NCBI GenBank assembly: GCA_031370645.1
Contig: JANMQV010000152.1
Span: 16,144 to 80,143 of the forward strand
Source: Candidatus Eiseniibacteriota bacterium
GTDB taxonomy: Bacteria; Eisenbacteria; RBG-16-71-46; SZUA-252
DNA: 64,000 bases
Direction: 5' to 3'
Part shown: in pieces, positions 4,571 to 57,614 of the stretch
How positions within the stretch are numbered: the stretch's first letter is position 1
Layout: the number at the start of each line of letters is the position of its first letter
Notes under the pieces: model-generated
Database searches by the model: none
What the model was told of the DNA's origin: nothing
The model's input: only the letters and a program-made list of their open reading frames with translations
Position numbers and translations under genes: made by a program

Positions 4571-4573
4571 GCC

Positions 4574-5224
4574 GTGCGGGTCGAACGCCGTCCCGTGGGG
4601 CCGTTCGACAATAATCTCTACATTCTCTCCACGCCCGGATCGCCGGACGCGATCGTCGTCGATCCCTGCGGCGACGACGGGACCGCGCTTCGCGAGATCG
4701 AGCGGCGCGGCCTCAAACTCCGCCGCATTCTCCTCACGCACGGGCACATCGACCACATCCTCGCCGTGAAGGCGTATCGCGACGCGACCGGGGCCCCGGT
4801 CTGGATGCATCCCGGCGATCGCTGGTGGCTCGAGCGCGCGCCGGCGCAGGCCGCGACATTCGAACTGCCGTGGAACGGCGCGTTCGAAGTCGATCACTGG
4901 ATCACGGGTGGGGAGGAAGTCGGACTGCCGGGCATCGAGGTGCGCGCGCTGGAGACGCCAGGGCACTCGCCCGGAAGCGTGACGTTTGTGACTCCCGACG
5001 GTCTGATCTCGGGCGATGTCCTCTTCGCCGGCTCGGTCGGCCGCACCGACCTTCCGCTCTGCGACCCCGAGGCGCTCGTCCGTTCCGTGCGGGAGTGTCT
5101 CTTCGCCTACCCTGACGCGACCCCCGTCTATCCGGGGCACGGCCCCGCGACGACCATCGGAGCGGAGCGCCGGTCGAACCCGTTCGTCGGGGACGTCGCG
5201 CTCGGACACCGCCAGAGCGTCTGA
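4574..5224 (+). CDS. MBL-fold metallo-hydrolase (glyoxalase II-like)
   Basis: THGHIDH (HxHxDH) zinc-binding motif with downstream His/Asp ligands (TPGHSPGS, GDVLF), as in the hydroxyacylglutathione hydrolase / beta-lactamase fold. GTG start 4 nt after the OMT stop. Confidence 0.8.
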   Translation: MRVERRPVGPFDNNLYILSTPGSPDAIVVDPCGDDGTALREIERRGLKLRRILLTHGHIDHILAVKAYRDATGAPVWMHPGDRWWLERAPAQAATFELPWNGAFEVDHWITGGEEVGLPGIEVRALETPGHSPGSVTFVTPDGLISGDVLFAGSVGRTDLPLCDPEALVRSVRECLFAYPDATPVYPGHGPATTIGAERRSNPFVGDVALGHRQSV

Positions 5225-5254: not shown

Positions 5255-6895
5255 GTGACGAACGAATTCGAAAAACTCCTGCACCCGAGCGCGCTCTACC
5301 GCGACTTCCTCCTGTCGCCCGAGCGGGTGCGCGAGTTCTACCCGGCCGACTTCCGCGATCCCGCAGCACTCGGAACTCGTGCCGCGGCGCGGGCGTTCCC
5401 GCCCGATCGGCGCGCGGCGGTCGTCTCGATCCTGCGACGTCAAGCCGCGTCGTGGGATCTGGGCGAACACTCCCGGGAGGCGCTGGCGCGCTTCGAGCGC
5501 CCCGACGCGCTCTGCGTCGTGGCGGGGCAGCAGCCGGGGCTCTTCGGCGGGCCGCTCTACACGATCTACAAGGCGCTCACGGCCATCGCGCTCGCGAAGT
5601 CGATCGAAGCGGCGCGCGGCGTTCCGGTGGTGCCGATATTCTGGCTCGCCTCCGACGATCACGACTTCGAGGAAGTGCGCCGCACTTGGGTGAGCGACGG
5701 CGGGCCCGAGCCTTCGGTGTTAGAGGTGGCCGCCTCCGACGCTCCCGCCGGCGTTTCGGTGGCGCGCGTGAAGCTCGGCGCCGGCGTCGAGGCGCTCCAC
5801 CAGCGTCTCGCTTCGCTTCTCCCTCCGTCGGAATTCCGGGATCCGCTCCTCGCGCGACTGCGCGATGCCTACGCGCCGGGACGCGGATGGAGCGACGCCT
5901 TCGCGCGCTTCGTCGGTTCGCTCCTCGCGCCGATGGGAATGCTCCTCTTCGATCCTTCCGACGCGGAGACGAAACGGCTCGCGCTCCCGATCTTCGAGCG
6001 CGAGGCGGCGCTCGCCGGCGAGAGTTCACGAAAGGCGCACGATCGCGGCGCCGAACTCGTGGCGCGCGGCTACCACGCGCAGATCACGCGGTCGGGGAAC
6101 GAACTGAATCTCTTCTGGCACGAGGAGAAGCGCGAGTCGCTCCGACTGGTGGACGGGAAGGTGCGTGCTTCGGAAGGCGGTCCCACCTGGAGCCCCGCCG
6201 AATTCGCGAAGGCGCTGCACGATGCTCCCGAGAAGGCGAGCCCCGGGGTTCTTCTTCGTCCGCTCATGCAGGACTACCTCCTCCCGACCGCGGCGTACGT
6301 CGGCGGTCCCGCGGAGGTCGCCTATTGGGCGCAGATCCATCCCCTCTATCCGCTCTTCGACCTGGCAACCCCGGCCGTCACGCCGCGCGCGGGCGCCACG
6401 CTCCTCGAACCGAAGATCGCGAAGACGCTCGACCGCTTTGGACTCGAGTGGTCGGCGTTGGCGGGCGACGTGGAGCCGATCCTGACCGAGACGCTCCGGA
6501 AACTCCTCCCCGACGATTTCCCCGACCGCTTCGATCGCGAGCGGAAGGAGTGGGACGCCTCCTTCCAGCGCCTCGACGCCGTTGTTACCGCATTCGATCC
6601 GTCGCTCCGATCGGCGCTCACCACCGCGGCGGGAAAGGTGCAGCACGAGGGGCGCGAATTGGAGAGGAAACTGATGCAGGTCTGGAAGCGCCGCCAGGAG
6701 GAGTCGGTTTCGCAGATTCGCCGCGCGGCGGGGCACCTCTTCCCTCACGGGGGATTGCAAGAAAGAACGCTCTCCGTCCTCGGATATCTCGCGCGCTACG
6801 GCCCCGAATTGCCGGGGCGCATGCGCGAGGCGATCGGCGCGCCCGGCTCGCACGTGGTGATTCCGGTCGGCGGACCGGTGGTGGCGCCGCGATGA
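5255..6895 (+). CDS. bshC: bacillithiol biosynthesis cysteine-adding enzyme BshC
   Basis: Strong match to the BshC/YllA family. VVAGQQPGLFGGPLYTIYKAL and VPVVPIFWLASDDHDFEEV match the conserved core of B. subtilis BshC. Length 546 aa. Confidence 0.85.
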   Translation: MTNEFEKLLHPSALYRDFLLSPERVREFYPADFRDPAALGTRAAARAFPPDRRAAVVSILRRQAASWDLGEHSREALARFERPDALCVVAGQQPGLFGGPLYTIYKALTAIALAKSIEAARGVPVVPIFWLASDDHDFEEVRRTWVSDGGPEPSVLEVAASDAPAGVSVARVKLGAGVEALHQRLASLLPPSEFRDPLLARLRDAYAPGRGWSDAFARFVGSLLAPMGMLLFDPSDAETKRLALPIFEREAALAGESSRKAHDRGAELVARGYHAQITRSGNELNLFWHEEKRESLRLVDGKVRASEGGPTWSPAEFAKALHDAPEKASPGVLLRPLMQDYLLPTAAYVGGPAEVAYWAQIHPLYPLFDLATPAVTPRAGATLLEPKIAKTLDRFGLEWSALAGDVEPILTETLRKLLPDDFPDRFDRERKEWDASFQRLDAVVTAFDPSLRSALTTAAGKVQHEGRELERKLMQVWKRRQEESVSQIRRAAGHLFPHGGLQERTLSVLGYLARYGPELPGRMREAIGAPGSHVVIPVGGPVVAPR

Positions 6896-44628: not shown

Positions 44629-45338
44629 AAGCGCTCGTCATCATCCCGACCTACAACGAACGGGAGAACCTCACCGAGCTCCTTCGCCAGATCTTCGCGC
44701 TCGGCATCGGCCTCGAGGTTCTGATCGTGGACGACAACTCGCCGGACCGCACCGGGCAGTTGGCGGACGAGATGGCCGCCGCCGACCCGCACATCCACGT
44801 GCTCCATCGCGCGGGGAAGATGGGACTCGGTTCGGCCTACGTGGCGGGGTTTCGCTACGCCCTCGATCGCGACTACGAGGCGATCTTCGAGATGGACGCC
44901 GACTTCTCGCACAGTCCCGAGAGCCTGCCGGTGTTCCTGAAGGAACTCGAGTCGGCCGACCTCGTCCTCGGTTCTCGCTATCTGCACGGCGTGACGGTCG
45001 TGAACTGGCCGCTCAGCCGCCTCATTCTTTCCTACGCGGCGAATGTCTACAGCCGCGTCATCACGGGCATGAACATCAAGGACGCCACCGGCGGCTTCAA
45101 ATGCTTCCGGCGCCAAGTGCTCGAAGCGATCGATTGGAGTCGCGTGAAATCGGACGGCTACGGATTCCAGATCGAGATCAACTTCAAGGCGTTCCGGAAG
45201 GGATTCCGCATCAAGGAGATTCCGATCCTCTTCGTCGACCGGCGCGCCGGGGAGTCGAAGATGTCGCGGAAGATCGTATGGGAGGCCGCCTACATGGTTT
45301 GGCGCCTGCGGGTCCTCGACCTCATCGGGGCGCTGTAG
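44625..45338 (+). CDS. polyprenol-monophosphate mannose/sugar synthase (DPM1-like GT2)
   Basis: VIIPTYNEREN, VDDNSPDRTG and the FEMDADFSH DxD region are close to the Dpm1/Ppm1 family. A soluble form without a TM tail. Confidence 0.8.
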   Translation: MKALVIIPTYNERENLTELLRQIFALGIGLEVLIVDDNSPDRTGQLADEMAAADPHIHVLHRAGKMGLGSAYVAGFRYALDRDYEAIFEMDADFSHSPESLPVFLKELESADLVLGSRYLHGVTVVNWPLSRLILSYAANVYSRVITGMNIKDATGGFKCFRRQVLEAIDWSRVKSDGYGFQIEINFKAFRKGFRIKEIPILFVDRRAGESKMSRKIVWEAAYMVWRLRVLDLIGAL

Positions 45339-45349
45339 CCCGCGCGCCC

Positions 45350-47302
45350 ATGGGCGTCTCCCTCGTCGTCGTCCACTACCGCACCCGGGAGCCGCTCGCT
45401 CGCCTTCTGGCGTCGCTTCGCACCGCGCGCCCGGCTCCCGTGCGCGAGCTCATCATCGTGAACAACTCGGGCGAGCCGCTCGACGACCTGGTCGCGGGCT
45501 CCGGTCTTCCGACGCGTGTTCTCTCGCCGGGGAAGAATCTTGGATACGCGGGGGGCGTGAACCTCGGCATCCGCGCGGCGACCGAGGAGGATGTGCTGAT
45601 CCTGAACCCCGACATCCAGGTGACGCCGGGGTCGGTGGAGGCGCTCGTCCTCTGCGCCGAGCAGCGGCCGCGCGCCGGACTCGTGGCCCCGAAGCTCGTC
45701 TTCCCGGACGGAACGCTTCAGCTTTCCGTCCGGCGCTTCTACAATGCGAAAACACTCCTCCTCCGCCGGCTCCCACTGGGACCGATGGCGGAGCGGAGTC
45801 GAATCGTCCGCGACCACTTGATGGCCGATTGGGATCACGAGGAGTCGCGCCCCGTCGACTGGGCGCTCGGCGCCGCCCTCTTCGCGCGGCGGCGTGCCAT
45901 GCGGGACGTCGGGCTCATGGACGAGCGCTACTTCCTCTACTTCGAAGACGTCGATTGGTGCGAGCGGATGTGGCGCCACGGCTTCGAAGTGGTCTACTGC
46001 GCCGAGTCGCGCATGGTGCACGAGCACCAACGCGCCAGCGCCCGTCTCGAACCGCGGTCGTGGAAGGCCCATGCCGCGGGACTCCTCCGATTCGCGGAAA
46101 AGTGGAGTGCCGTCCTTTACGCCGTGAGCCAATACCGCCGCCGCATCGTGCAGGGCGTCGCTCTCGCGGGCGACCTGATCGCCGTCTCCGCCGCGTTCCT
46201 GGCGGCGTACGGCTTTCGCCTGCTCCTCGATCCGTGGTTCGAGAAGCCGGTCTTTCCGCTTCCGAACTACCGCGGTCTCTTCGTCTTCGCCCTCGCCATG
46301 ACCATTGCCTCCCTCGCCTGGAACGGACTCTATCGCCGTCTCTCGTTCACGGACGGAATCGATCGCGCGTTTTCGCTCGGGCGCGCCGTCGTGCAGGCGG
46401 GACTCCTCGTCATGGCGGCGACGTTCTTCTTCCAGACGCCCCGATTCTCGCGCGTCCTCGTCCTCCTCCTGGGGCCGCTCTGTTTCGGAATGCTTCTCGT
46501 CTCTCGCGCCGCGGTGGAGCGGCTCGGCGCCGGGGCGCGGCGACACGGTTTCGCCTTCCGCCGCGTGCTCCTCCTCGGGAGCGGCGAAGCGGCGGCGCGC
46601 GCGCGCGCGGCGCTCGAGGAAGCACGGGGCGAAGGGTTCGAGCCGCTTCGCGCCGAGTACTCGGGTCCCGAAGGGGAGACGCCGGAGGCAGCCGCGGCGA
46701 GGCTTCGGACTCTCGTCGCGACGGAACGAATCCAGATCGTCCTCCTCGTTCCCGACGAGCTGGAGCTTCCGCATCTCCTCGCCGTCGGCGCGGCCCTCCG
46801 CGAGTGCGGCGCGGCCATCTGGTGGGCCGGCCCGGCCGCGCTCTTGGCCCCGCTCGGCGCCGAGTCGCGGCTCGGCCCGCTTGACGCCGTGCTCCTCCAC
46901 ACTCCCTCGCGCGGACTCGGTCCGCGCACGCGGAAGCGAGTGAGCGATCTCTTCCTTTCGTTCTTGGTGGCGCCGTGGCGCTGGGGTGGGCTCCGCGCCT
47001 ATCTCGCCGCGCACGAGGAGCCGCTCCGTCCCGCCGAAGCGTGGCGCCAAGTGTGGAGCGGAGAACGCTCCTGGGTAGGCCGGAGCCGGTACGAAGTCGA
47101 TCGCTGGGCCGGCATACCGTCGTGGGCGCGGCTCGCGCTCCAAACGCTTCGCCCCGGGGTCGTCTCGCCCGCGCTCTCGAGCAAGAACGGCGCCGATCGC
47201 ACCGCGCGCTTGGAGTCCGAGCTCGCCTATCTCTCTCGATTCTCGATGGCGGAGGACCTGCGGCTCTTCCTTCGCGCGACGCGCGGGCAGGGAACCCGAT
47301 GA
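45350..47302 (+). CDS. fusion protein: N-terminal GT2 (rhamnosyltransferase-like) + polytopic region with degenerate polyprenyl-glycosylphosphotransferase (WbaP-like) features
   Basis: Residues 1-250 form a complete GT2 domain (VVVHYRT, NNSG, NLGYAGGVN, YFEDVDWCERM). Then come TM helices and a CoA-binding-like segment arranged as in the WbaP N-terminus. The C-terminus keeps only fragments of the Bac_transf catalytic domain. Confidence 0.6.
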   Translation: MGVSLVVVHYRTREPLARLLASLRTARPAPVRELIIVNNSGEPLDDLVAGSGLPTRVLSPGKNLGYAGGVNLGIRAATEEDVLILNPDIQVTPGSVEALVLCAEQRPRAGLVAPKLVFPDGTLQLSVRRFYNAKTLLLRRLPLGPMAERSRIVRDHLMADWDHEESRPVDWALGAALFARRRAMRDVGLMDERYFLYFEDVDWCERMWRHGFEVVYCAESRMVHEHQRASARLEPRSWKAHAAGLLRFAEKWSAVLYAVSQYRRRIVQGVALAGDLIAVSAAFLAAYGFRLLLDPWFEKPVFPLPNYRGLFVFALAMTIASLAWNGLYRRLSFTDGIDRAFSLGRAVVQAGLLVMAATFFFQTPRFSRVLVLLLGPLCFGMLLVSRAAVERLGAGARRHGFAFRRVLLLGSGEAAARARAALEEARGEGFEPLRAEYSGPEGETPEAAAARLRTLVATERIQIVLLVPDELELPHLLAVGAALRECGAAIWWAGPAALLAPLGAESRLGPLDAVLLHTPSRGLGPRTRKRVSDLFLSFLVAPWRWGGLRAYLAAHEEPLRPAEAWRQVWSGERSWVGRSRYEVDRWAGIPSWARLALQTLRPGVVSPALSSKNGADRTARLESELAYLSRFSMAEDLRLFLRATRGQGTR

Positions 47303-49500
47303 GGCGCTCCGTCGTGGCGGCATGGGCGCTCGTGCTCGTGGCGATCTCGATCGTTCCGTCCGCCGCCGAGAGCGCGACCCGGGTGTTTATCGTGAATCAC
47401 GTCGCGTCGAACGACATCCGCGGAGCGGCGCCGTGGGGCGCGTCCCTGGCGCTCGCCACAAACGGCGGGCTCGTCTTCGCCGACACGGCAACCGGGGGCA
47501 CCTCGAAAGTCCTTCGCCGAAGCGGCGGGCTCGCGTCGAACAACCTCATGGCGATCGCCGCCAGTCCCGCCGGCGCCCTCTGGATCGGCACCGCCGATCT
47601 CGGCCTCTCGCGGTACCGGCCCGACGGGACGTTCCCTCGAACGCTCACGTCGTTTGACGGACTCCCGAGCGATCGCGTGCAGGCGCTCCTCCGATCGGGG
47701 GACAGCGTCTGGGTCGCGACGAGCGGCGGCGTCGCCCTCTTCGCCGAGAACCCGGCCAACGGCCAGATCGCGCTCCGACGCTCCGATTCGAAGGCGAGCA
47801 CCGGGGGCGCGTTGGTGAGCGACGACGTGACGTCGTTCGCGGTCTGGAACGACACGCTCTGGTGCGGCACGAACGCGGGGCTCTCGATCTTCGCCTCCGG
47901 AGTCTGGAGCGCGCGAAGTTCCATCGTCTCCGAGCGAGTGCAGGCGCTCCTGGTCGAGCGCGACACGCTCTGGGTCGGAACGAAGACGGGACTTCGCGCC
48001 TACGCCGGTGGAGCCGTCGCGTCGCGCGGGCTGGCGATCGAGACGCTCGCGCTGGCGGCCATTCCCGGCGGCGTCGGGCGCGGAACCACCATCGGCCCTT
48101 ACCTCGAGTCGCCCGACGGCCTCGAGACATCGCTCGGGCTCGCCGGGCTTCCAATCGCGCGCGTCCAAGTGATGACCGCGACCGGCTCCTCGCGCGTGGT
48201 GGCGGGGACCGCGACGGGCCTCGCGCGGCGCGTCGAGGGCGCGACCCCCTGGGAGCCGATCCGGAGCGCCGGCCCCGAGTGGAACGGCGGCTCCCGCGTC
48301 TCGGCGGGAGGAGGAAACGTTTGGGTGACGCTCGGGAACGCGGTCCCGCCCGGATTGGGTATCGGGAGCGTCATGCGCTACGACGGGACGTCGTGGTCGA
48401 TCCTTACCAGCGCCTCGACGGGCGGCAATTTACAGGATGCGGGCGCCATCGGAGTCCTGGCGGCGAGGGACGGCCGGCTCTGGGTCGGGCACTGCTGTTC
48501 GGGCTCGCTCGGGCCCTCGCGCCCTCGCGCCGATCGCTGGGATCCGGGCGCCGACGTCTGGGATCGCCCCGCCGCCTATAACATCATCGCGCTCGCGCAG
48601 GCGCCCTCCGGCCGCGTCTTCGCCGCGGGCGTCGAATACGAGAACGGCCTCTATCTCCTCGACGGGACGACGGCCGCGCTGCTCGATTCCCTCACGCCCG
48701 GGAACACGAACTCCGGGCTGAGCCGAAACAATCTCCGCGACGTCGCGTTCGATCCGTCGGGTCGCGCCTGGATCGCGACGGTCGACAACGGCGTCGATCG
48801 CTGGAACGGAAACGGCACCGACGATCACGCCGACGACGGCTGGACGCACTTCGCGGGCATCGGCTTCCCGAGTCTCCAGACCACGGCGATCGCCGTCGTC
48901 GCCGGCAACGACGCGTGGGTCGGGACGCGAGGCGGAGCGGTTCGAATTGCGAACGACGCGGTCGACCTCTTGGCCACGTCGCGCGCCAACAGCGCCATCG
49001 GCGGCGCGGAGGTGAACGACCTCGCGGTGGACGACGACCATGCCGTTTGGATCGCCACCGCCGGCGGATTGACGCGGATCTCCCCCTCCGGGCAGATCGA
49101 GCGATTCGGCGCAGACGACGGGCTCGCGGACGAAGACGTGCTGGCGCTCTCGTGGGACGGCGCACGCGAGATCCTCTGGGCGGTCACCGCCGGAGGGGTT
49201 TCGGAGATTCACCCCGCCCTCTCCACGCGCGCGTCGTTCGACGACGGGAGCTACGTCTATCCCAATCCCGCGACCGCGGCGAGCGCGCCGATTCGGCTGG
49301 GCGGCATCTCGGGCGAGATTCGCGGCGAGATCCGAGATCTCTCGGGAACGCGCATTCGTTCCTTTCACGCGAACCCCGTCGCCACCGCCGTCTGGGATCT
49401 CCGCGACGAGCAGGGATCGATCGTGGCTCCGGGAATCTATCTCGTGGTGCTCCGTCAGGGCGACCTGACGCGCGTGCTCCGCGTGGCGGTCACGCGATGA
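47299..49500 (+). CDS. secreted beta-propeller protein (two-component-regulator-propeller / Reg_prop repeats) with T9SS-type C-terminal sorting domain
   Basis: Signal peptide. Repeated LW(I/V)GT..GL motifs (LWIGTADLGLSRY, VWVATSGGVALF, LWCGTNAGLSIF, LWVGTKTGLRAY, VWIATAGGLTRI). The last roughly 90 aa (YVYPNPATAAS...GIYLVVLRQGDLTRVLRVAVTR) resemble a T9SS CTD. Confidence 0.55.
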   Translation: MRRSVVAAWALVLVAISIVPSAAESATRVFIVNHVASNDIRGAAPWGASLALATNGGLVFADTATGGTSKVLRRSGGLASNNLMAIAASPAGALWIGTADLGLSRYRPDGTFPRTLTSFDGLPSDRVQALLRSGDSVWVATSGGVALFAENPANGQIALRRSDSKASTGGALVSDDVTSFAVWNDTLWCGTNAGLSIFASGVWSARSSIVSERVQALLVERDTLWVGTKTGLRAYAGGAVASRGLAIETLALAAIPGGVGRGTTIGPYLESPDGLETSLGLAGLPIARVQVMTATGSSRVVAGTATGLARRVEGATPWEPIRSAGPEWNGGSRVSAGGGNVWVTLGNAVPPGLGIGSVMRYDGTSWSILTSASTGGNLQDAGAIGVLAARDGRLWVGHCCSGSLGPSRPRADRWDPGADVWDRPAAYNIIALAQAPSGRVFAAGVEYENGLYLLDGTTAALLDSLTPGNTNSGLSRNNLRDVAFDPSGRAWIATVDNGVDRWNGNGTDDHADDGWTHFAGIGFPSLQTTAIAVVAGNDAWVGTRGGAVRIANDAVDLLATSRANSAIGGAEVNDLAVDDDHAVWIATAGGLTRISPSGQIERFGADDGLADEDVLALSWDGAREILWAVTAGGVSEIHPALSTRASFDDGSYVYPNPATAASAPIRLGGISGEIRGEIRDLSGTRIRSFHANPVATAVWDLRDEQGSIVAPGIYLVVLRQGDLTRVLRVAVTR

Positions 49501-49525
49501 CGCCGCGCGCGCTCTCCGACTCGCG

Positions 49526-50500
49526 ATGAAATTCGAGTCGCCGCTCGTCCTCGTTTCGCCTCCCGATCGCGAGCGCTGGGACGCGCTCGTCGCGGGCGCG
49601 CCGGGGGCGAGCTTCATCCACACACCGGCGTGGGCCAAACTCTGGACCGACGAATGGCCGGACTCCCGCTGGGAAGCGCTCGTGGTGGAGGAAGGGGGCG
49701 CCTACGCCGCGGGGCTCGGAGCGATCGTTCGGCGCCGCGGGCCGTTTCGCACGATCGACGCCATGCCCTTCGCCACCTACGGCGGGCCACTCGTCCGAAA
49801 GGGACACCCCGACCCCCGCGGCCTCTCGACGGCGCTCCTCGAAGGATTCGCCCGATGGATCGGAGGCCCCTTCGTGCTCCGCGCTTCGCTGGCGTGGGAG
49901 CGGGGCGATCGCGACGCGTTTCCCGACCGCCTGCCTCCGCTCGAGTCGTTCACGCACGTGCTGCCGCTGTCGGCGGATTACGAGGAGGTCGCGTCCCACT
50001 TCTCTCCCTCCACGCGACGGCTCGTTCGGCAGGCCGACGAGAGCGGCCTTTCGATCGAAACGGCCGACACGATCGAAAAGATCGGCGCCTTCTACGGCCT
50101 GGCCGTGGAAACCGTGCGGCGCCGCGGCGGCACGCCGAAGCCGCGATCGCTCTACGAACGGATCTTTCACGATCTCGTCTCGAAGGGATCGGGACGCTAT
50201 CACCTCGTCCGTCACGGCGAGAACGTGGTGGCGGGGAGCCTCCATTTTTTCCACGAGGGCGTGGCGACGAACTGGCTCCCGGTTTCGAGCGAGGCGGCGT
50301 GGCCGCTTCGGCCGAATAATTTCCTCATCGCCTCGATCCTCGAAACGCTGAGCGCCGCGGGCTACCTGGAATACAACTTCGGCGCCTCGCCCCCCGACGC
50401 CTCGGGTCTCATCCGCTACAAAGAGGGGTGGGGCGCGCGGAGCCGCCCCGTCCTTCTCGCGGGGCGCCGCTCGGGACTCCACCGGCGCTTCCGCCCGTAG
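49526..50500 (+). CDS. FemAB-like / GNAT-fold acyltransferase (peptidoglycan-bridge-formation fold; often seen next to EPS loci)
   Basis: Length and duplicated GNAT-like fold arrangement (NWLPVSSEAAWPLRPNNFLIASILE). No closer family motif confirmed. Confidence 0.45.
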   Translation: MKFESPLVLVSPPDRERWDALVAGAPGASFIHTPAWAKLWTDEWPDSRWEALVVEEGGAYAAGLGAIVRRRGPFRTIDAMPFATYGGPLVRKGHPDPRGLSTALLEGFARWIGGPFVLRASLAWERGDRDAFPDRLPPLESFTHVLPLSADYEEVASHFSPSTRRLVRQADESGLSIETADTIEKIGAFYGLAVETVRRRGGTPKPRSLYERIFHDLVSKGSGRYHLVRHGENVVAGSLHFFHEGVATNWLPVSSEAAWPLRPNNFLIASILETLSAAGYLEYNFGASPPDASGLIRYKEGWGARSRPVLLAGRRSGLHRRFRP

Positions 50501-50508
50501 GCCGACGC

Positions 50509-51651
50509 GTGCGGATCCTCCTCCTCGCGCACGCACCGTCGATCCACACGCAGCGCTGGGCGCGGTCGCTCGGGGCGCGGGGGCACGACGTGCGGCTTCT
50601 CTCGGTGACGCCGGCGCCGAGCGCGGCCGTCCCGGGCGAGCCGATCGGTTGGCGCGGCGCGCCGCTTCCGTTTCTCCGCTATGCCGCCGCGCGGGGAAAG
50701 GTGCGGCGCGTGCTCGAGTCGTGGAAGCCGGACGCGACGGTCGCGCACTTTCTTCCGAATTACGGGTTCCTCGCCATGCTCTCCGGCGCGCATCCCTTCG
50801 TGCTGACGGCGTGGGGCTCCGATCTCCTCGTGAACGCCCGCCGCTCGCCGTTTCACGAGGCGCGCGCTCGCGCGGTGCTGGGGCGCGCCTCGCTGATCCA
50901 CGTCGATTCCGAGAATCTCGCCGTCGCCGCGCGGGCGCTTGGCGCCGAGCCCCACCGCCTCTGGATGCGCCCGTGGGGCGTGGAGGTGGACGCCCTCGCG
51001 CCCGCGTCGCCCTGGAATGAGCGACGCGTGCGCGCCGGCGCGATCCGCGTCCTCTGGAATCGGATGCTCGAACCGCTCTACGATCCCGAGACCTTGCTTC
51101 GGGCGCTCGAGGCGCTCCGACGGAGCGGCCGCGATGTACGAGCCACGATCGCGGGGGACGGTCCGCTCCGTCCCGCGCTCGAGGTCGCTGCTGCGCGTCT
51201 CGGCCTCGCCGCGAACGTCCGCTTCACCGGGCGGGTGGACGAAGCGGCGATGCGCGCCCTCTACCGGGAACATGAGTTCTACGTCTCCATGTCCCGATCC
51301 GATTCCACTTCGCAGTCGCTCCTCGAGGCGATGGCGTCGGGGCTCTATCCGATTGTGAGCGACATCGCGGGGAACCTCCCCTGGGTGCGGGGCGCCGCGG
51401 CCGCGCGCGAAGCGGCGGGCGATGCGGGGCGCCTCGTGCCTTGCGGCGACGACCGTGCGTTGGCGGCGGCGATCATCGCGGCGGCCGACGATCCCGATGG
51501 CGCGGAACGAATCGCTCGAGGGATCGCGCGCGTTCGCGCGGAGGCGGACTGGAGAGAGACCGTGTCGCAATTCGAGGCGCGGCTCGCCCTGCTTTCGCGC
51601 GACGCCCGAAACGGCGCGGGAGCAGGACCCGGGGGAGCGAGCCGGGCATGA
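50509..51651 (+). CDS. glycosyltransferase family 4
   Basis: GT-B fold. C-terminal GT4 motif (SRSDSTSQSLLEAMASGLYPIVSDIAGN). Confidence 0.7.
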   Translation: MRILLLAHAPSIHTQRWARSLGARGHDVRLLSVTPAPSAAVPGEPIGWRGAPLPFLRYAAARGKVRRVLESWKPDATVAHFLPNYGFLAMLSGAHPFVLTAWGSDLLVNARRSPFHEARARAVLGRASLIHVDSENLAVAARALGAEPHRLWMRPWGVEVDALAPASPWNERRVRAGAIRVLWNRMLEPLYDPETLLRALEALRRSGRDVRATIAGDGPLRPALEVAAARLGLAANVRFTGRVDEAAMRALYREHEFYVSMSRSDSTSQSLLEAMASGLYPIVSDIAGNLPWVRGAAAAREAAGDAGRLVPCGDDRALAAAIIAAADDPDGAERIARGIARVRAEADWRETVSQFEARLALLSRDARNGAGAGPGGASRA

Positions 51652-52985
51652 AACGGCTTCTCGTCCTCGCCTACTTCTTTCCGCCCCTCGGCGGCGGCGG
51701 ATGCCAGCGGACGCTCAAACTCGTTCGCTACCTCGAACCGAACGGATGGGTCTCCACCGTGGTGACGGTGAAGGAACCCGACTACTGGATCCTCGACCCG
51801 ACGCTCCTCGAGGAGATTCCCGCTTCGTGCGAGGTGGCCCGCGTGAGCGCGCTGACTTCGCAGCGTCTCCTCCGCCTCCTTGGGGGTGCGGGCGTTCAAC
51901 TGGAGGAGCGACAGGGGACTCGGCGCGCGGGAGCCTTCCGCGCTCTGAGACGCCTGCAGCAATTCGTCGCGATCCCCGACGGCTATCGCCCCTGGGCGCG
52001 CGCCGCCGAGCGCGCCGCCGCTGCGCGCCTCGCGAAGGGAGGCATCGACGCGCTCTGGACCACGTCGTCGCCCGAGAGCGCGCATCTCGCCGGCCTCGCG
52101 CTGAAACGGAAATTCGCGCTCCCGTGGATCGCCGACTTTCGTGATCCGTGGGTCGGGCGCGTCACCTATGCGCCTCCCACCGCGTGGCACGATCGCCGGC
52201 ACCGCGCGCTCGAACGTGAAGTCGTCGCCACCGCCGATCGCGTCACTGTCGTGAGCGAAGCCATGGCGGCGCGGTTCCGGGAGCGCTATCCCGCGCTCGG
52301 CCCCGCGCACTTCGTCGTGCTTCCGAACGGATACGACCCCGACGACTGGGCGCGTGTCGCGCGACTCCCGTTGTCGCTCGAGCCGGACGCGGCTCGTGAG
52401 GCCGACGCGCGGCGTTTCGTCGTGCTTCATGCCGGCCAGCTGGCGCATCGCCCCACCGTCGGCGACCTGCTCGCCGCCGTGGCCCGCCTCGTGGAGGAAT
52501 CGCCCGCACGCCGGAAGACGCTTCGGCTCCGTTTCATGGGTGGAAACGAAGGGCTCGACGCGGCGACCGTGGCGCGGAAGGGGCTCTCGGAGGTCGTGGA
52601 TCTTCTGCCGTCGCGTCCCCACCTCGAGGCGATGGCGGCCATGAGGCGGGCGAATCTCCTTGTCCTCTTGGGCCATGGCGGAGAGGCCGATTCCCAACTC
52701 TACACGGGGAAAATCTACGAATACCTCACGAGTGGAACGCCGCTTGTCGGCGTCCTCGGCCCAGGCCCGGCCAGCGACCTCATCTCCCGAGCGGGAGGCG
52801 GCCGCGCGTGTCTTCCAGGGGACGTAGATGGCGTCTGTTCCGCGATTCGATCCCCCCTGGAGGCCTGGGAACGACATGAAAAGCGGCAGGACCTCCCACT
52901 TCCAGCGATCGCCGTCGAGTGGGAGCGCCGAACCATGGCCCGGCAGGCCGCCGAACTCCTCGATTCAGTCCATTCCAAGCGCTAG
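51648..52985 (+). CDS. glycosyltransferase family 4
   Basis: N-terminal FFPPLGGGGCQRT motif typical of GT4 enzymes acting on membrane-bound acceptors. C-terminal GT-B Rossmann domain. Confidence 0.7.
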   Translation: MKRLLVLAYFFPPLGGGGCQRTLKLVRYLEPNGWVSTVVTVKEPDYWILDPTLLEEIPASCEVARVSALTSQRLLRLLGGAGVQLEERQGTRRAGAFRALRRLQQFVAIPDGYRPWARAAERAAAARLAKGGIDALWTTSSPESAHLAGLALKRKFALPWIADFRDPWVGRVTYAPPTAWHDRRHRALEREVVATADRVTVVSEAMAARFRERYPALGPAHFVVLPNGYDPDDWARVARLPLSLEPDAAREADARRFVVLHAGQLAHRPTVGDLLAAVARLVEESPARRKTLRLRFMGGNEGLDAATVARKGLSEVVDLLPSRPHLEAMAAMRRANLLVLLGHGGEADSQLYTGKIYEYLTSGTPLVGVLGPGPASDLISRAGGGRACLPGDVDGVCSAIRSPLEAWERHEKRQDLPLPAIAVEWERRTMARQAAELLDSVHSKR

Positions 52986-53074
52986 CCTCCGCCTTCCTCC
53001 CCACGATTTCCCCCCCCTTCCGTAAGCCTTTGGACTCCATGGAAATAAAATTTCATTTTTTCTAGGATTCCGCG

Positions 53075-53103
53075 TTGACACCCCCTATCGGGATGCCTAG
53101 GAT
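53075..53103 (+). promoter_or_regulatory. sigma70-like promoter of the dcw cluster (TTGACA-17 nt-TAGGAT), preceded by an AT-rich UP-like element
   Basis: TTGACA at 53075-53080, a 17-nt spacer, TAGGAT at 53098-53103. An unusual AT-rich stretch sits just upstream (53041-53066, GGAAATAAAATTTCATTTTTTCTAGG) in a 70% GC genome. Confidence 0.5.
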
Positions 53104-53111
53104 GCGCGCTG

Positions 53112-53139
53112 GTGGAGGGAAGTGGGGAATTGTGGGGGG
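53112..53139 (+). promoter_or_regulatory. MraZ-binding-repeat-like direct repeats (GTGG[A/G]GG x3 at exact 10-bp spacing)
   Basis: GTGGAGGGAA / GTGGGGAATT / GTGGGGGGAT starting at 53112, 53122 and 53132, just downstream of the -10 element. E. coli MraZ binds GTGGG direct repeats separated by 5-nt spacers in the same relative position. Confidence 0.5.
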
Positions 53140-53203
53140 ATGAGCTGGTGGCCTTCCCACCTGCTCCCAAGGGCACTCAGAGGCGACACGGGCGAGTCAG
53201 GGG

Positions 53204-53644
53204 ATGGCGACGTTCCGCGGTAGCTACGAACACACCATTGATCACAAGGGGCGCGTCAGCATTCCGGCGCGCTTCCGCCGCCAGTTGTCCGGTGACGCGA
53301 ACGAGACGTTTGTCGTTCTCCGCGGCCTCGACACCTGTGTCGCGCTCTATCCCGCCGACGAGTTCCGCCGACTCGAAGAACGCCTTCGCGCCCGCTCGTT
53401 CACCGACGAGACGACGCGTCGTTTTCAGCGGCTCCTCTTCCACGATTCGCGCGACGAGACGCTCGATGCGCAGGGACGCGTGGCGCTTCCGCCCGCGCTC
53501 ATCACGCACGCCGAACTGAAGCACGGCGTGCTCGTGAAGGGCGTGCTCGACCACATCGAAATTTGGAATCCCGACACCTACGAGCGCTATGTCGGCGCCT
53601 CGAATCGAACATACGAAGAAATCGCGGGAGAACTCCTACTGTGA
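53204..53644 (+). CDS. mraZ: division/cell-wall cluster transcriptional regulator MraZ
   Basis: Tandem MraZ/SpoVT-AbrB-like domains with the DxxGR motifs (IDHKGRVSIPARFR, LDAQGRVALPPAL). Confidence 0.9.
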   Translation: MATFRGSYEHTIDHKGRVSIPARFRRQLSGDANETFVVLRGLDTCVALYPADEFRRLEERLRARSFTDETTRRFQRLLFHDSRDETLDAQGRVALPPALITHAELKHGVLVKGVLDHIEIWNPDTYERYVGASNRTYEEIAGELLL

Positions 53645-54093
53645 TCGCCGCCACGCTTCGCCGCGACCGGACTTCGGTCGGAGAACACCCGACCTACCAG
53701 TGGGACGCCGCGCTCGACGCCGGCGCGCGCACGATCCGGCTCTACGGCCGCCTCGGCGAGCGCGAACTTCGCCGCGTGCTCGACGCGATCGTGGAGCGAG
53801 CCCGTTCGCCGCGCGACACGGTGCACGTCGATTTCTCCGGCGTCTCGCACGTCGACTTCCGAGCCGTCGCGGAGTTCTTGGCGGCGCTCGGACGCCTTCG
53901 CGATCGAAGCGCGGCGATCTGGATCGTCGGGGCATCGCCCTACATTCGGCAGCTCATGGACGTCTCGGGTGAGGGGTCGCTGCGGCGAGCGCTCTCCCCA
54001 GACGTGGGACCCGCGGCAAGTGCGGCCCGGCCGGGAGGAGACGAACTCCGCGCGGCCGAGCGGCGCGCGCTTCGAGCGGGCACCTGGAACTAG
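53641..54093 (+). CDS. STAS-domain protein (anti-sigma-factor-antagonist-like) inserted between mraZ and rsmH
   Basis: VHVDFSGVSHVDFRAVAEFLAALGRLRDRSAAIWIVGASPYIRQLMDVSG fits the STAS/SpoIIAA-like fold. GTG start overlaps the mraZ stop. Confidence 0.55.
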   Translation: MIAATLRRDRTSVGEHPTYQWDAALDAGARTIRLYGRLGERELRRVLDAIVERARSPRDTVHVDFSGVSHVDFRAVAEFLAALGRLRDRSAAIWIVGASPYIRQLMDVSGEGSLRRALSPDVGPAASAARPGGDELRAAERRALRAGTWN

Positions 54094-54116
54094 ACGGACC
54101 GACGGGGAACGGAGCG

Positions 54117-55055
54117 ATGTCCGGGCACGTCCCGGTCCTCCTCCTCGAAGCGGTCCGGCTTCTCATCACCGATTCACGCGGCACCTACGTCGACGTCACG
54201 CTCGGCGGCGGCGGGCACTCGGTGGCTTTACTGCACGAGGTGGGAATGGATTCGAGGCTGGTAGGGATGGATTGCGACCCAGCGGCGGTGGAACGCGCGC
54301 GCCGGACGCCGCCTGCCCTGGCCCCACGTTTCACCGCCGTCCGTGCGCGCTTCTCCGAACTGGAACGCGCTCTCGAGTCGCTCGGCATCGCCGAGGTGGA
54401 CGGGATCCTCGCCGATCTCGGCATCTCCTCGACACAGCTCGACGATCCGGTCCGCGGTCTGTCGTTCGACCGTGAGGGGCCGCTCGATATGCGTCTCGAC
54501 CCATCCCGCCCCGATTCCGCCGACTCCCTGATCTCCAAGGTGGACGACGAAACGCTCGTGCGGTGGCTCTCCGAGTATGGCGAGCTTCCCCGCGCGCGCG
54601 CCGCGGCCCGCGCCATCCGCCGCCAGCGCCACGCCCAGGGACATCTCACGACGCGCGGGCTCCGCGACGCGCTGGAGCCGCTCTACCCCGGCCCGTCACG
54701 CCACCGCCGTTTGGCTCAGGCGTTCCAGGCGCTCCGCATGGCGGTCAATCACGAGCTCGAGGAGCTTCGCGCGCTGCTCGACGCGGCCGCGCGGATCGTC
54801 CGGCCCGGCGGGACGCTCGTCGTCATCGCCTACCACTCGATCGAGGACCGGATGGTAAAGCAGGCCTTCCGGCCGCCACGCCCGTTCGAGATATGGGAAG
54901 AGCCGGCGCCCGAGCCGTGGGAGCCGATCACGCCGAAACCGATCCGTCCCGATGACTCCGAAGTTCACGACAACCCTCGCGCGGGAAGCGCGCGCCTGCG
55001 GGCGGCTCGCCGCCGCCCCGGCGTGGCGGCGCCCGTGCGCCGCGAGGAGGCCTGA
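54117..55055 (+). CDS. rsmH: 16S rRNA (cytosine1402-N4)-methyltransferase
   Basis: HVPVLL N-terminus, SAM-binding DxTLGGGGHS, DLGISSTQLD motif. Confidence 0.92.
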   Translation: MSGHVPVLLLEAVRLLITDSRGTYVDVTLGGGGHSVALLHEVGMDSRLVGMDCDPAAVERARRTPPALAPRFTAVRARFSELERALESLGIAEVDGILADLGISSTQLDDPVRGLSFDREGPLDMRLDPSRPDSADSLISKVDDETLVRWLSEYGELPRARAAARAIRRQRHAQGHLTTRGLRDALEPLYPGPSRHRRLAQAFQALRMAVNHELEELRALLDAAARIVRPGGTLVVIAYHSIEDRMVKQAFRPPRPFEIWEEPAPEPWEPITPKPIRPDDSEVHDNPRAGSARLRAARRRPGVAAPVRREEA

Positions 55056-55056
55056 G

Positions 55057-55527
55057 GTGAGTGGCTACCTCCGTCGCTACCGCCTCGAACCGCGCCGTGG
55101 ACACGGCCGTCTCGTGGCCTGCGTTCTTCTCCTCATGGCCGTCCTCTTCGCGAAAGTCTGGCAGTCGACGGCCGCGAATTCGCTCTCGATGGAGCGCGAC
55201 CGCCTTCGCCGCGAGGTGCGCGTGCTGGAGAACCGGATTCGCCTCTCCTCCGAACTCCGCATCCAGGCCGCGCTCCGCGAGGGGCTCGATCATCGGGCGC
55301 TCACGGCGCTCGGCTTTCAGAATCCCGACCCGGCCGTCGTCGTGAACATCGAACTGAGCGACGCGGCGCCCCTCGGTCCCCGAGCAAGTGACGGCGTCGC
55401 CGCGCGATTCAGCGGATTCCTCCGCGGCTTCCAGGGCACGCGCGACCGACGAGCCGACGAGGCCCGCGCCATCGAGGTTTCCACGGAGATTCCCACCGAC
55501 GCAAACGCCGACGAGGGGTCCCGATGA
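55057..55527 (+). CDS. ftsL: cell division protein FtsL-like (single TM + coiled coil)
   Basis: Position between rsmH and ftsI. One TM helix (LVACVLLLMAVLF) followed by a coiled-coil segment. Confidence 0.55.
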   Translation: MSGYLRRYRLEPRRGHGRLVACVLLLMAVLFAKVWQSTAANSLSMERDRLRREVRVLENRIRLSSELRIQAALREGLDHRALTALGFQNPDPAVVVNIELSDAAPLGPRASDGVAARFSGFLRGFQGTRDRRADEARAIEVSTEIPTDANADEGSR

Positions 55528-57614
55528 TTCCGCGCGACCGAAATCGCCTTCGCGCGATCGCGCTCCTCGGGCTCGTGGCCTTCGCCGTGCTCTTCGCGCG
55601 TTTGGTTCAGATCCAGTTGGTCGGCCACGAGCGATACGCGCGCGACGCCCGCTCCCAGCAGACGCGTCGCGTCATCTTGGAGCCGGAGCGGGGAAGAATT
55701 TTCGACCGCCACCTCCGTCCGCTCGCGGAGAACGTCGACCTGAGCCAGATTTCGGTTCGTCCCGGCGAGATTCGGAACGCCGGCGCCGTGGGCGATTTCC
55801 TCCGGCAAACGACCGGCGCCCCGGGGCTCCGGAAGCTCAAACTGGGGCGCGCGAATCACCGCGTCTACGTCCGCATCGCCGCCCAGCTGAAGCCGGAGCA
55901 GGAACTCGCGCTGAAGACGACGAAACTCCCCGAGGGGATTCACGTCGAGCAGGTGCCGGGCCGCGTCTACCCGCTCGAGGACGTCGCCCGTTCGGTCCTG
56001 GGCGTCGTGGGGAATGAAGGGCACGGCCTCGAAGGGCTGGAGCAGGTCTTCGACCGCGAACTGCAAGGGAAGCCGGGCTGGGCCACGCTCTTCTCGGACG
56101 GTCGCGGAACGAACTACGAGTTGCCCCGAAGCATGGTGAAGCTGCCCGACTCGGGCGGAAGCCTCGTGACGACGATCGACCTCGATGCCCAGTCGGTGGC
56201 CGTCATGAAGCTCCGCGAAGCCGTGGCGCGGACCGGATCGAAGAGCGGCACGGCGGTCTTCGTCGATCCGAAGACGGGCGACATCCTGGCAATGGCAACG
56301 GTCGATGGCCCCGCGGCCGGGGGCGCTCCGAACCGAAACCGCGTCGTGGCCGACCAGTACGAGCCGGGTTCCACGTTCAAGATCCTCGCCGGCTGTGCCG
56401 CCATCGAGGAGAAGCTCTTCTCCGACCAGGAATCGATTTGGGTCTACCAGGGGAAGATCGACTTCGGCGGCTTCTCGATCCACGACTCCCATCCGGAGAC
56501 CGGGTGGTACACGCTTCGCCGCGCGACCTCGCACTCGAGCAACGTCGTCTACTCCCAGGTCGGAACGCGCGTGGGCGCGGAGCGGCTCTACCGCTACGCG
56601 CGGCTTTTCGGATTCGGACAACCGACGCGCGTACAGCTCCCGGGCGAAGCGCCGGGCGTGGTGCGCGAACCGTCGCGCTGGTCGAAGCGCTCCCTTGCGA
56701 CGATCTCGATCGGCCACGAGGTGCTCGTGACGCCACTCCAGGTGGTGATGGCCTACGCCGCCGTCGCGAATGGAGGGATGCTCCTTCGCCCCCGCATCGC
56801 GAGCGCGATCGTGGACGACGAAGGCGAGCTGATCCGCGAGGTGCCGGTGGAGCCGGTCCGGCGCGTGATCTCCGAAGCGACGGCGAGGAAGTTCCGCTCC
56901 TTCCTCCGCGAGGCGGTAACCGATGGGACGGCCGCCGAGGCGGCGCTCCCCTGGTGCGAGGTGGCGGGAAAGACGGGAACGGCGCAGAAGACGGTGGAAG
57001 GGACGAAGGGGTACGGCGCGGGGCGTTACATGGCCTCATTCGTCGGGATGGTGCCGGCCGACGATCCGAAGGTGGTCGGGCTCGTCGTCCTCGACGAACC
57101 GCGCGGCGCCTATTACGGCGGCGAAATCGCCGCACCGGTGTTCCGAGAAATCATCGCGGCTTGGGCGGTGCAGGGGCGCGGGCCGTTGACGATGCCGACT
57201 TCGGAGTTGGTGCGCGCGGACGAACCGCCCTCCTCCTCCGAGCGCGTTCCCGACGTCCGCCTTCTGGCGCCGGGCCGCGCGCGCGAGCTCTTGGGGCGCG
57301 GTGGATTCGATGTACGCGTGACCGGCGACGGCGCGCGAGTCCTGGCGCAGGATCCGGCGCCGGGCGAAGCCGCAAGGAGGGGCGCGACGGTTTCGCTCAC
57401 GCTCGCCTCGGCGACGGAGACGGGTGAGGTCGTGATGCCCGACCTCCGCGGGCTCTCGGTGCGGGAGGCCATCACGCAATTGCGCGCGCTGGCCATTCCC
57501 GTCGGGCGCGTGCGGGGATCGTCGGGACGGGTGGTGGAGCAGTCTCCCGAGCCGGGGCGGGTCGTGCGCCGCGAGACGCGAGCCGTCTTGACGCTCGAGC
57601 CGCGGGGCGCGTGA
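55524..57614 (+). CDS. ftsI: peptidoglycan D,D-transpeptidase FtsI (class B PBP) with C-terminal PASTA domains
   Basis: PBP dimerisation domain, transpeptidase motifs STFK, SHSSN and KTGTA, then two PASTA-like repeats (LAPGRARELLGRGGFDVRVTGDG..., MPDLRGLSVREAITQLRALAIPVGRVRG...). Confidence 0.9.
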   Translation: MIPRDRNRLRAIALLGLVAFAVLFARLVQIQLVGHERYARDARSQQTRRVILEPERGRIFDRHLRPLAENVDLSQISVRPGEIRNAGAVGDFLRQTTGAPGLRKLKLGRANHRVYVRIAAQLKPEQELALKTTKLPEGIHVEQVPGRVYPLEDVARSVLGVVGNEGHGLEGLEQVFDRELQGKPGWATLFSDGRGTNYELPRSMVKLPDSGGSLVTTIDLDAQSVAVMKLREAVARTGSKSGTAVFVDPKTGDILAMATVDGPAAGGAPNRNRVVADQYEPGSTFKILAGCAAIEEKLFSDQESIWVYQGKIDFGGFSIHDSHPETGWYTLRRATSHSSNVVYSQVGTRVGAERLYRYARLFGFGQPTRVQLPGEAPGVVREPSRWSKRSLATISIGHEVLVTPLQVVMAYAAVANGGMLLRPRIASAIVDDEGELIREVPVEPVRRVISEATARKFRSFLREAVTDGTAAEAALPWCEVAGKTGTAQKTVEGTKGYGAGRYMASFVGMVPADDPKVVGLVVLDEPRGAYYGGEIAAPVFREIIAAWAVQGRGPLTMPTSELVRADEPPSSSERVPDVRLLAPGRARELLGRGGFDVRVTGDGARVLAQDPAPGEAARRGATVSLTLASATETGEVVMPDLRGLSVREAITQLRALAIPVGRVRGSSGRVVEQSPEPGRVVRRETRAVLTLEPRGA

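Follow-up and report, generated by a model that had tools for sequence, protein, structure and literature searches.

The gene order mraZ-rsmH-ftsL-ftsI at the head of the dcw cluster (for division and cell wall) ranks among the most conserved in bacteria, and a gene lodged inside it raises the question of what it is and what it does there. Such a gene is found in contig JANMQV010000152.1 of a Candidatus Eiseniibacteriota bacterium (assembly GCA_031370645.1), in the stretch of 64,000 nucleotides (nt) from position 16,144 to 80,143 of the forward strand that was analysed here and is called the window below. A 150-amino-acid (aa) open reading frame (ORF) lies between mraZ and rsmH, and a preliminary description based on the bare sequence had read it as an unusual insertion, a STAS-domain gene coupled to mraZ and coding for an anti-sigma-antagonist-like regulator. 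Our overall best explanation, to which we assign a probability of roughly 55%, is an operon-encoded STAS protein whose canonical site is not open to phosphorylation and which would act by binding the product of a neighbouring gene of the same operon. Its identity as a member of a STAS subfamily that resides in this slot of the dcw cluster is very probable indeed. The genes and the translation signal concerned are the following (all coordinates are those of the window).

53204 to 53644, forward strand: mraZ, 146 aa (Pfam MraZ, E 2.5e-33, two repeats)
53626 to 53630, forward strand: GGGAG, a Shine-Dalgarno-like motif that lies within the 3' end of mraZ and precedes the STAS GTG by 10 nt, read from the sequence and of presumed function
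53641 to 54093, forward strand: the dcw-cluster STAS gene (Pfam STAS_2, E 5.4e-11), with its GTGA lying over the mraZ stop
54117 to 55055, forward strand: rsmH/mraW, 312 aa (Methyltransf_5, E 8e-82), beginning 23 nt past the STAS stop

Coordinates, length and the overlap of the GTG with the mraZ stop had all been given exactly in the preliminary description: the frame ends with a TAG at 54091-54093, and its GTG start codon (53641-53643) overlaps the mraZ stop codon TGA (53642-53644) within the four nucleotides GTGA. Whether the frame is a gene at all has to be settled first. The GC content of the window is 68%, and the ORF list holds dozens of overlapping chance ORFs of the size of the STAS gene on both strands, so that 150 open codons prove little in DNA this rich in spurious long frames. 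The GC content at third codon positions (GC3) of the STAS ORF (0.76) is also lower than that of the flanking genes (0.82-0.86), which would suit an overprediction. Against this stands the conservation of the frame. A search of 5.8 billion proteins returned 34 close homologues of 47-97% identity, nearly all of them 150 aa long, and the order mraZ-STAS-rsmH was found in all 15 close loci, seven of which are related metagenome contigs (L001-L007) and eight are species-representative genomes (L008-L015; seven bear the label Candidatus Eisenbacteria, the eighth is named 'Acidobacteriota bacterium'). The worry raised beforehand, that relatives might lack a conserved ORF here, is thereby excluded. 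Frame and position are even kept in homologues down to about 25% identity, a Pfam match exceeds its curated cut-off, and the fold is modelled with confidence by AlphaFold. Ratios of nonsynonymous to synonymous substitution rates (dN/dS) among the close loci, taken only from comparisons with unsaturated dS, are well under 1, namely 0.17-0.32 for the STAS gene as opposed to 0.04-0.11 for mraZ and 0.10-0.21 for rsmH; judged by these values, the STAS gene is under purifying selection, with looser constraint than its two neighbours. The notion of a spurious ORF, to which we give next to no weight, is already refuted, and by the comparative sequence evidence the frame at 53641-54093 is a genuine gene and a member of the mra/dcw operon.

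Profile and model agree on the protein. Pfam STAS_2 (PF13466) matches residues 32-110 along profile positions 1-78 of 80 with 42.9 bits (gathering threshold 29.2, E 5.4e-11), and Pfam STAS (PF01740) reaches 22.9 bits with a cut-off of 22.6. An AlphaFold2 model built on the family alignment has a predicted local distance difference test score (pLDDT) of about 89-96 over residues 31-120, with strands at 29-38, 60-71 and 92-96 and helices at 40-53, 73-89 and 100-117; poorly defined are residues 1-14 and the tail past 122 (pLDDT below 50 at 123-136 and 147-150). In a Foldseek comparison with the PDB all of the 30 best matches were STAS/SpoIIAA folds, among them SpoIIAA and RsbV, with SLC26 STAS domains and MlaB further down. 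The leading entries were 4hyl (E 4e-6), 6m36 (RsbV, 1e-4) and 1tid and 1th8 (SpoIIAA, 2-4e-4), with template modelling scores to the target of 0.6-0.77; 4hyl is a Haliangium anti-sigma antagonist, 6m36 is RsbV of B. subtilis and 1tid/1th8 are Geobacillus SpoIIAA. Both by profile and by predicted fold, the window protein is thus a member of the STAS superfamily, and the STAS/SpoIIAA-like core proposed beforehand is borne out. Its elements lie as follows.

53695 to 54000, forward strand: STAS-fold core, residues 19-120, with a pLDDT of about 90 or more (AlphaFold2 and Foldseek)
53848 to 53862, forward strand: signature H70-V-D72-F73-R74 at the junction of strand 3 and helix 2 (HMMER alignment to SpoIIAA)
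53935 to 53943, forward strand: second signature S99-P100-Y101 at the N-terminus of helix 3
54037 to 54090, forward strand: clade-specific C-terminal tail, residues 133-150, AERRALRAGxWN (alignment and model)

The signature residues separate this protein from the phospho-switch members of the superfamily. In the HMMER profile alignment F73 falls on the first Ser of the SpoIIAA DSSG motif, a position that is Ala in 1tid; that residue is the phospho-acceptor Ser of SpoIIAA. Judged by the alignment, the window protein is therefore not phosphorylatable at the canonical position. It carries V68, H70, D72, F73, R74 and S99-P100-Y101, and by the known STAS fold the segment S99-P100-Y101 should share a face with the H-x-D-Y-R loop. 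Among 67 diverse members of the family that had been selected on H-x-D-[YF], 42 have Tyr and 25 have Phe at position 73, and residues that were no selection criteria are also widely kept (R74 in 60, Y101 in 66, S99 in 49 and G36 in 62 of the 67). The subfamily can be described by V-x-H-x-[D/N]-[Y/F]-[R/N] together with S-x-Y at the N-terminus of helix 3. Every member with verified genomic context has the core H-x-[D/N/H]-[Y/F]; the fifth position is mostly R (N in locus L024, S in protein P0048 of L027), and L016 and L024 have N-x-Y in place of S-x-Y. A metal site of the transferrin type (His, Asp, Tyr, Tyr, Arg) was considered and dropped, since the window protein and 25 of the 67 members have Phe at position 73.

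The same residues mark remote relatives. When 1.84 billion cluster representatives were searched exhaustively with HMMER and the close-family profile, five clusters came out below 1e-30 and 13 below 1e-10, followed by about 95 weak matches. Most of the weak ones are more than generic STAS proteins: in roughly two-thirds an invariant His precedes the Asp by two residues, Tyr or Phe takes the phospho-Ser site, an Arg adjoins it and S-P-Y opens helix 3. A broad-family profile collected 358 proteins at E <= 1e-6; the signature also occurs in 87 of 87 further sequences listed from that search, and source names among its matches include Myxococcus (MULTISPECIES), M. qinghaiensis, M. stipitatus, Archangium, Myxococcaceae and metagenome-assembled genomes (MAGs) of Myxococcales.

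How does this bear on the proposal of an anti-sigma-antagonist-like regulator? On that account the protein would be a classical SpoIIAA/RsbV anti-anti-sigma factor that switches partners with a kinase and a PP2C phosphatase encoded elsewhere, and so connects a sigma factor with division. The best structural and sequence matches are indeed SpoIIAA, RsbV and other anti-sigma antagonists, relatives are annotated as 'anti-anti-sigma factor', and non-phosphorylatable antagonists exist. However, the phospho-acceptor Ser has given way to Phe or Tyr throughout the family and the signature differs from DSSG. The window protein scores 17.2 bits with TIGR00377 (cut-off 53.45) and 18.8 bits with TIGR02886 (cut-off 114.75), far below in both cases. 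Among about 50 ORFs from all over the 64 kb, Pfam scans detected no HATPase_c kinase, no PP2C/SpoIIE phosphatase and no sigma factor, and the listed flanks of the related loci hold no kinase, phosphatase or sigma-factor gene either; the look-out for partner kinases and phosphatases recommended in the preliminary description thus came back empty for the window. By phospho-acceptor, by profile score and by neighbourhood, then, the protein falls outside the antagonist family. With Phe or Tyr in place of the Ser, and no kinase, PP2C or sigma factor in the window, a classical phospho-switch role is unlikely, and we regard the antagonist account as a whole as improbable. What stands of the original proposal is the fold, which is closest to SpoIIAA and RsbV; the antagonist role attached to it has become weak with F73 in place of the Ser and the low TIGRFAM scores.

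The conserved residues admit another interpretation, in which the protein is a sensor of a small molecule or metabolite, for example an anion, a nucleotide or a precursor of the cell wall, that reports to the division operon. H70, D72, R74 and Y101 are invariant or nearly so and offer ligand-binding chemistry, and the loop at this position carries phosphate or a nucleotide in other STAS domains. The hydroxyl of residue 73 is dispensable, however, since the position alternates between Tyr and Phe, and the very same patch is the protein-binding face of SpoIIAA and RsbV. We consider a sensor slightly less improbable than an antagonist; it also overlaps with the favoured explanation of a partner-binding operon protein, to which a ligand could be the input.

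All nine distant members that were sampled individually, about 25-35% identical to the window protein, occupy the identical slot.

Loci L016/17: between mraZ and rsmH, mraZ confirmed by Pfam
Loci L018/19: between mraZ and rsmH
Loci L020/21: between mraZ and rsmH
Locus L022: between mraZ and rsmH, complete genome of Myxococcus stipitatus (CP147913)
Locus L023: between mraZ and rsmH
Locus L024: between mraZ and rsmH
Locus L025: between mraZ and rsmH
Locus L026: between mraZ and rsmH
Locus L027: between mraZ and rsmH

The insertion is therefore not peculiar to this genome, given the same slot in 15 of 15 close and 9 of 9 distant loci. MraZ, RsmH and FtsI of the distant genomes are just 27-46% identical to those of the window, and STAS identities group the loci in the way MraZ and RsmH identities do: Eisenbacteria, L016 with L018, L023 by itself, a Myxococcus type (L022 and L025) and a 'Myxococcales MAG' type (L024 and L026). 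This agreement argues for long vertical co-inheritance within the operon and not for repeated insertion. In the loci compared we observe a distinct STAS subfamily, vertically inherited as far as the identity groupings indicate, for which the mraZ-rsmH slot is the only genomic home seen; by the same comparison the gene is a fixed dcw member in at least four deep lineages, cultured Myxococcus included.

The genomic home also decides about a third interpretation. Several homologues are labelled 'ABC-type transporter Mla MlaB component' by the Joint Genome Institute, MlaB is a non-phosphorylated STAS_2-type protein, and E. coli MlaB is among the weak Foldseek matches (E about 1e-2), so an accessory subunit of an ABC transporter might be suspected. 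Yet the NCBIfam model mlaB_1 (NF033618) gives 14 bits with a cut-off of 90, neither the window nor any related locus contains mlaF, mlaE or mlaD genes, and the invariant neighbours are mraZ and rsmH. A transporter role is effectively refuted by this context, and we deem it extremely improbable.

Some public gene calls in these loci needed correction. Protein P0181 (279 aa; L023, 5001-5840) looked like a MraZ-STAS fusion and was rejected as such, its N-terminal half being an out-of-frame read-through of mraZ; the true STAS ORF of L023 overlaps the mraZ stop by 4 nt at its start, and the public annotation lacks a call for mraZ. At L016 the public call is a domainless 155-aa ORF on the minus strand (4485-4952), opposite a MraZ at 4521-4988 on the plus strand (Pfam E 6.6e-25). 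P0042 (146 aa) combines, in one frame, the N-terminal half of MraZ with the C-terminal half of a dcw-STAS protein; it probably arose by deletion or as a chimera of assembly and is not a natural fusion. Public labels of the family read 'STAS domain-containing protein', 'anti-anti-sigma factor' or 'MlaB component'. A published description of a STAS gene in the dcw cluster was not found, a passing mention in the dcw survey in Nature Microbiology 2022 being possible, and the literature on Myxococcus together with mraZ, and on MXAN_5610 to MXAN_5614, yielded nothing relevant. As far as our literature search found, the subfamily is previously undescribed.

If the slot is old, are the genes in it also expressed together? 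The start codon stands at -3 relative to the end of mraZ, that is with a 4-nt overlap, in all 15 Eisenbacteria-type loci and in L020 and L023, and the gene calls of L025 show the same overlap. The coupling of the STAS gene to mraZ described at the outset thus extends well beyond the window, and since the overlap recurs in 15 close relatives and three very distant lineages, co-expression with MraZ is very likely. On the other side, most lineages have only a short gap or overlap between the STAS gene and rsmH, and the two genes of L024 overlap by 4 nt, the stop of the former lying over the start of the latter. Control elements were sought upstream and between the genes.

53075 to 53103, forward strand: sigma-70-like promoter of the mra/dcw operon, TTGACA, a 17-nt spacer and TAGGAT (10 of 12 matches; 0.1 expected in shuffled sequences)
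53112 to 53137, forward strand: three GTGG(A/G)G direct repeats with exact 10-bp spacing just 3' of the promoter, a MraZ-box-like operator

The promoter is the sole promoter-like site within 52800-55600; in a scan of this region neither an internal promoter nor a terminator was found among mraZ, the STAS gene and rsmH, and an Rfam search of the region gave no match. The single promoter-like site, the MraZ boxes in front of mraZ and the lack of internal promoters and terminators together indicate that, as read from these signals, mraZ, the STAS gene and rsmH form one transcription unit. The GTGG repeats are a candidate operator that MraZ would bind. Of 26 related loci that were scanned, 19 have three GTGG units with 6-nt spacers upstream of mraZ (three of the other seven offered less than 130 nt of upstream sequence), so that the control by MraZ looks canonical. 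Both DxxxR DNA-binding motifs of MraZ (D13/R17 and D88/R92) are invariant in the paired MraZ-STAS alignment, and the MraZ of the window is 67-95% identical to that of the Eisenbacteria loci.

What, then, could the protein do? Characterised STAS modules act by binding, as is known for SpoIIAA with SpoIIAB, RsbV with RsbW, MlaB with MlaF and the SLC26 proteins, and MraZ is a ring-forming repressor of the AbrB/MazE fold. MraZ autorepresses mraZ-mraW-ftsL-pbpB and is functionally linked to MraW; its over-activity represses ftsL and blocks division, and its own regulation is not understood (bioRxiv 10.1101/2022.02.09.479790). In the scenario that we propose, the STAS protein would be translated together with MraZ in roughly fixed proportion, and its conserved face of strand 3/helix 2 and helix 3 would bind a partner, as in other STAS modules. 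MraZ would be the most likely partner, because it is the product of the coupled upstream gene and a ring-forming repressor whose over-activity blocks division and whose regulation is not understood; binding would alter the assembly of the ring or its attachment to the operator and would thus tune the autorepression of the operon, ftsL and ftsI included. RsmH would be the second candidate. As phosphorylation of a Ser is impossible here, control might be exerted through the abundance of the STAS protein or through a ligand at the conserved His/Asp/Arg/Tyr patch.

The steps of this scenario differ in strength. Binding to MraZ or RsmH in particular, suggested by analogy with other STAS modules, is a tentative assignment that we rate somewhat below even odds. 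Tentative to a higher degree, and rather doubtful as it stands, is the specific proposal that the protein is dedicated to modulating MraZ, with which it would be co-translated, as anti-repressor or co-repressor, and would feed into the MraZ switch setting the levels of ftsL and ftsI.

Several points weigh against a partner-binding protein of the operon. Net charge differs by lineage, with an isoelectric point (pI) of 9-11 in Eisenbacteria and of 5-7 elsewhere, which is odd for one conserved interface if the surface of the partner does not vary along with it. The coupling to mraZ is not found everywhere: the gaps are 22-46 nt in Myxococcus-type loci and about 245 nt in L027. The choice of MraZ or RsmH as partner draws on gene order and coupling, and the conserved order could reflect the needs of co-expression alone. 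Finally, a kinase or another partner elsewhere in the genome is possible, our search having covered the 64-kb window. Net charge had also been considered as a clue to nucleic-acid binding and was dropped, as it is not conserved across lineages.

The C-terminal tail is a trait of one clade. AERRALRAGxWN is near-invariant in the close Eisenbacteria, whereas the deeper Eisenbacteria L014 and L015 lack it, as do the other lineages; it is modelled as a helix (133-145), with low pLDDT for the protein modelled alone, and may be a clade-specific docking peptide. The tail-bearing proteins of close Eisenbacteria are very basic (pI 9-11), and Myxococcus-type members are acidic or neutral.

The remainder of the cluster follows the common pattern.

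55058 to 55527, forward strand: ftsL-like ORF, named by its position between rsmH and ftsI
55524 to 57614, forward strand: ftsI, a PBP3-type transpeptidase with PASTA domains (orthologues in related loci match PBP_dimer, Transpeptidase and PASTA)

The genes after ftsI are murE, murF, mraY, murD and ftsW. For the ftsL-like ORF no Pfam match to FtsL or DivIC was obtained, only a weak one to TY-Chap3 (E 0.005); its counterpart in the Myxococcus locus L022 matches both FtsL and DivIC. The ORF encodes a hydrophobic segment followed by a coiled-coil-like stretch and is poorly conserved, with 48-73% identity in partial alignments among the Eisenbacteria loci. Directly 5' of mraZ, the region 45101-52985 of the window contains a glycosyltransferase/exopolysaccharide block, with genes for a GT2/CoA-binding (Bac_transf-like) protein, for a Reg_prop beta-propeller, for a FemAB-like acetyltransferase and for two GT4 glycosyltransferases. 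The block recurs at L001, L004/L005, L016 and L023, in the last two, which are very divergent lineages, with its core (Bac_transf-like/CoA-binding, Reg_prop, GT4) 5' of the dcw cluster; it has the look of a conserved block for glycan synthesis that is attached to the cluster. In the Myxococcus-type loci L022 (3527-4237) and L025 (2621-3319) a divergent PilZ-domain gene is situated just 5' of mraZ. Farther away the window holds riboflavin, nuo, lipoate and other housekeeping genes, as well as a bshC-like gene of bacillithiol biosynthesis at 5255-6895 (Rossmann-like_BshC, E 1.6e-82), a sign of a low-molecular-weight thiol pathway.

An extra gene that is kept between mraZ and rsmH across lineages with MraZ and RsmH of just about 30-45% identity, and that is often coupled, hints strongly at a third functional partner. 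If the protein does modulate MraZ, the mraZ-rsmH module of Myxococcota, Eisenbacteria and related lineages would have a third component of ancient origin, and this would be a case of a STAS domain controlling a DNA-binding ring of the AbrB/MazE fold instead of a kinase or a transporter. Our results also correct the automatic labels 'anti-anti-sigma factor' and 'MlaB component' for this subfamily. They do not reveal a new kind of molecule; what they add is an unexpected member of a highly conserved and still puzzling regulatory module. Since the family is present in cultured, genetically tractable Myxococcus, the hypothesis is directly testable.

Compared with known systems, the protein resembles SpoIIAA and RsbV in being a single STAS domain of about 110-150 aa that has its best structural and PDB sequence matches among them, and in that its conserved residues lie on the strand-3/helix-2 and helix-3 face, the partner-binding face of SpoIIAA and RsbV. 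It differs in having H-x-D-[Y/F]-R for DSSG, with Phe or Tyr for Ser, and in belonging to the dcw operon and not to a sigma-factor operon, with no kinase, phosphatase or sigma-factor neighbour. In its working principle the closest analogy is MlaB, likewise a non-phosphorylated, constitutive binder of the STAS_2 type; the two are not orthologous (14 bits with a cut-off of 90), the signature residues differ, and no Mla genes lie near the dcw-STAS genes. The head of the canonical dcw cluster in E. coli, B. subtilis and Mycoplasma has the same gene order, the DxxxR motifs, three GTGG boxes with 10-bp spacing and a single promoter, whereas here one extra conserved gene stands between mraZ and rsmH.

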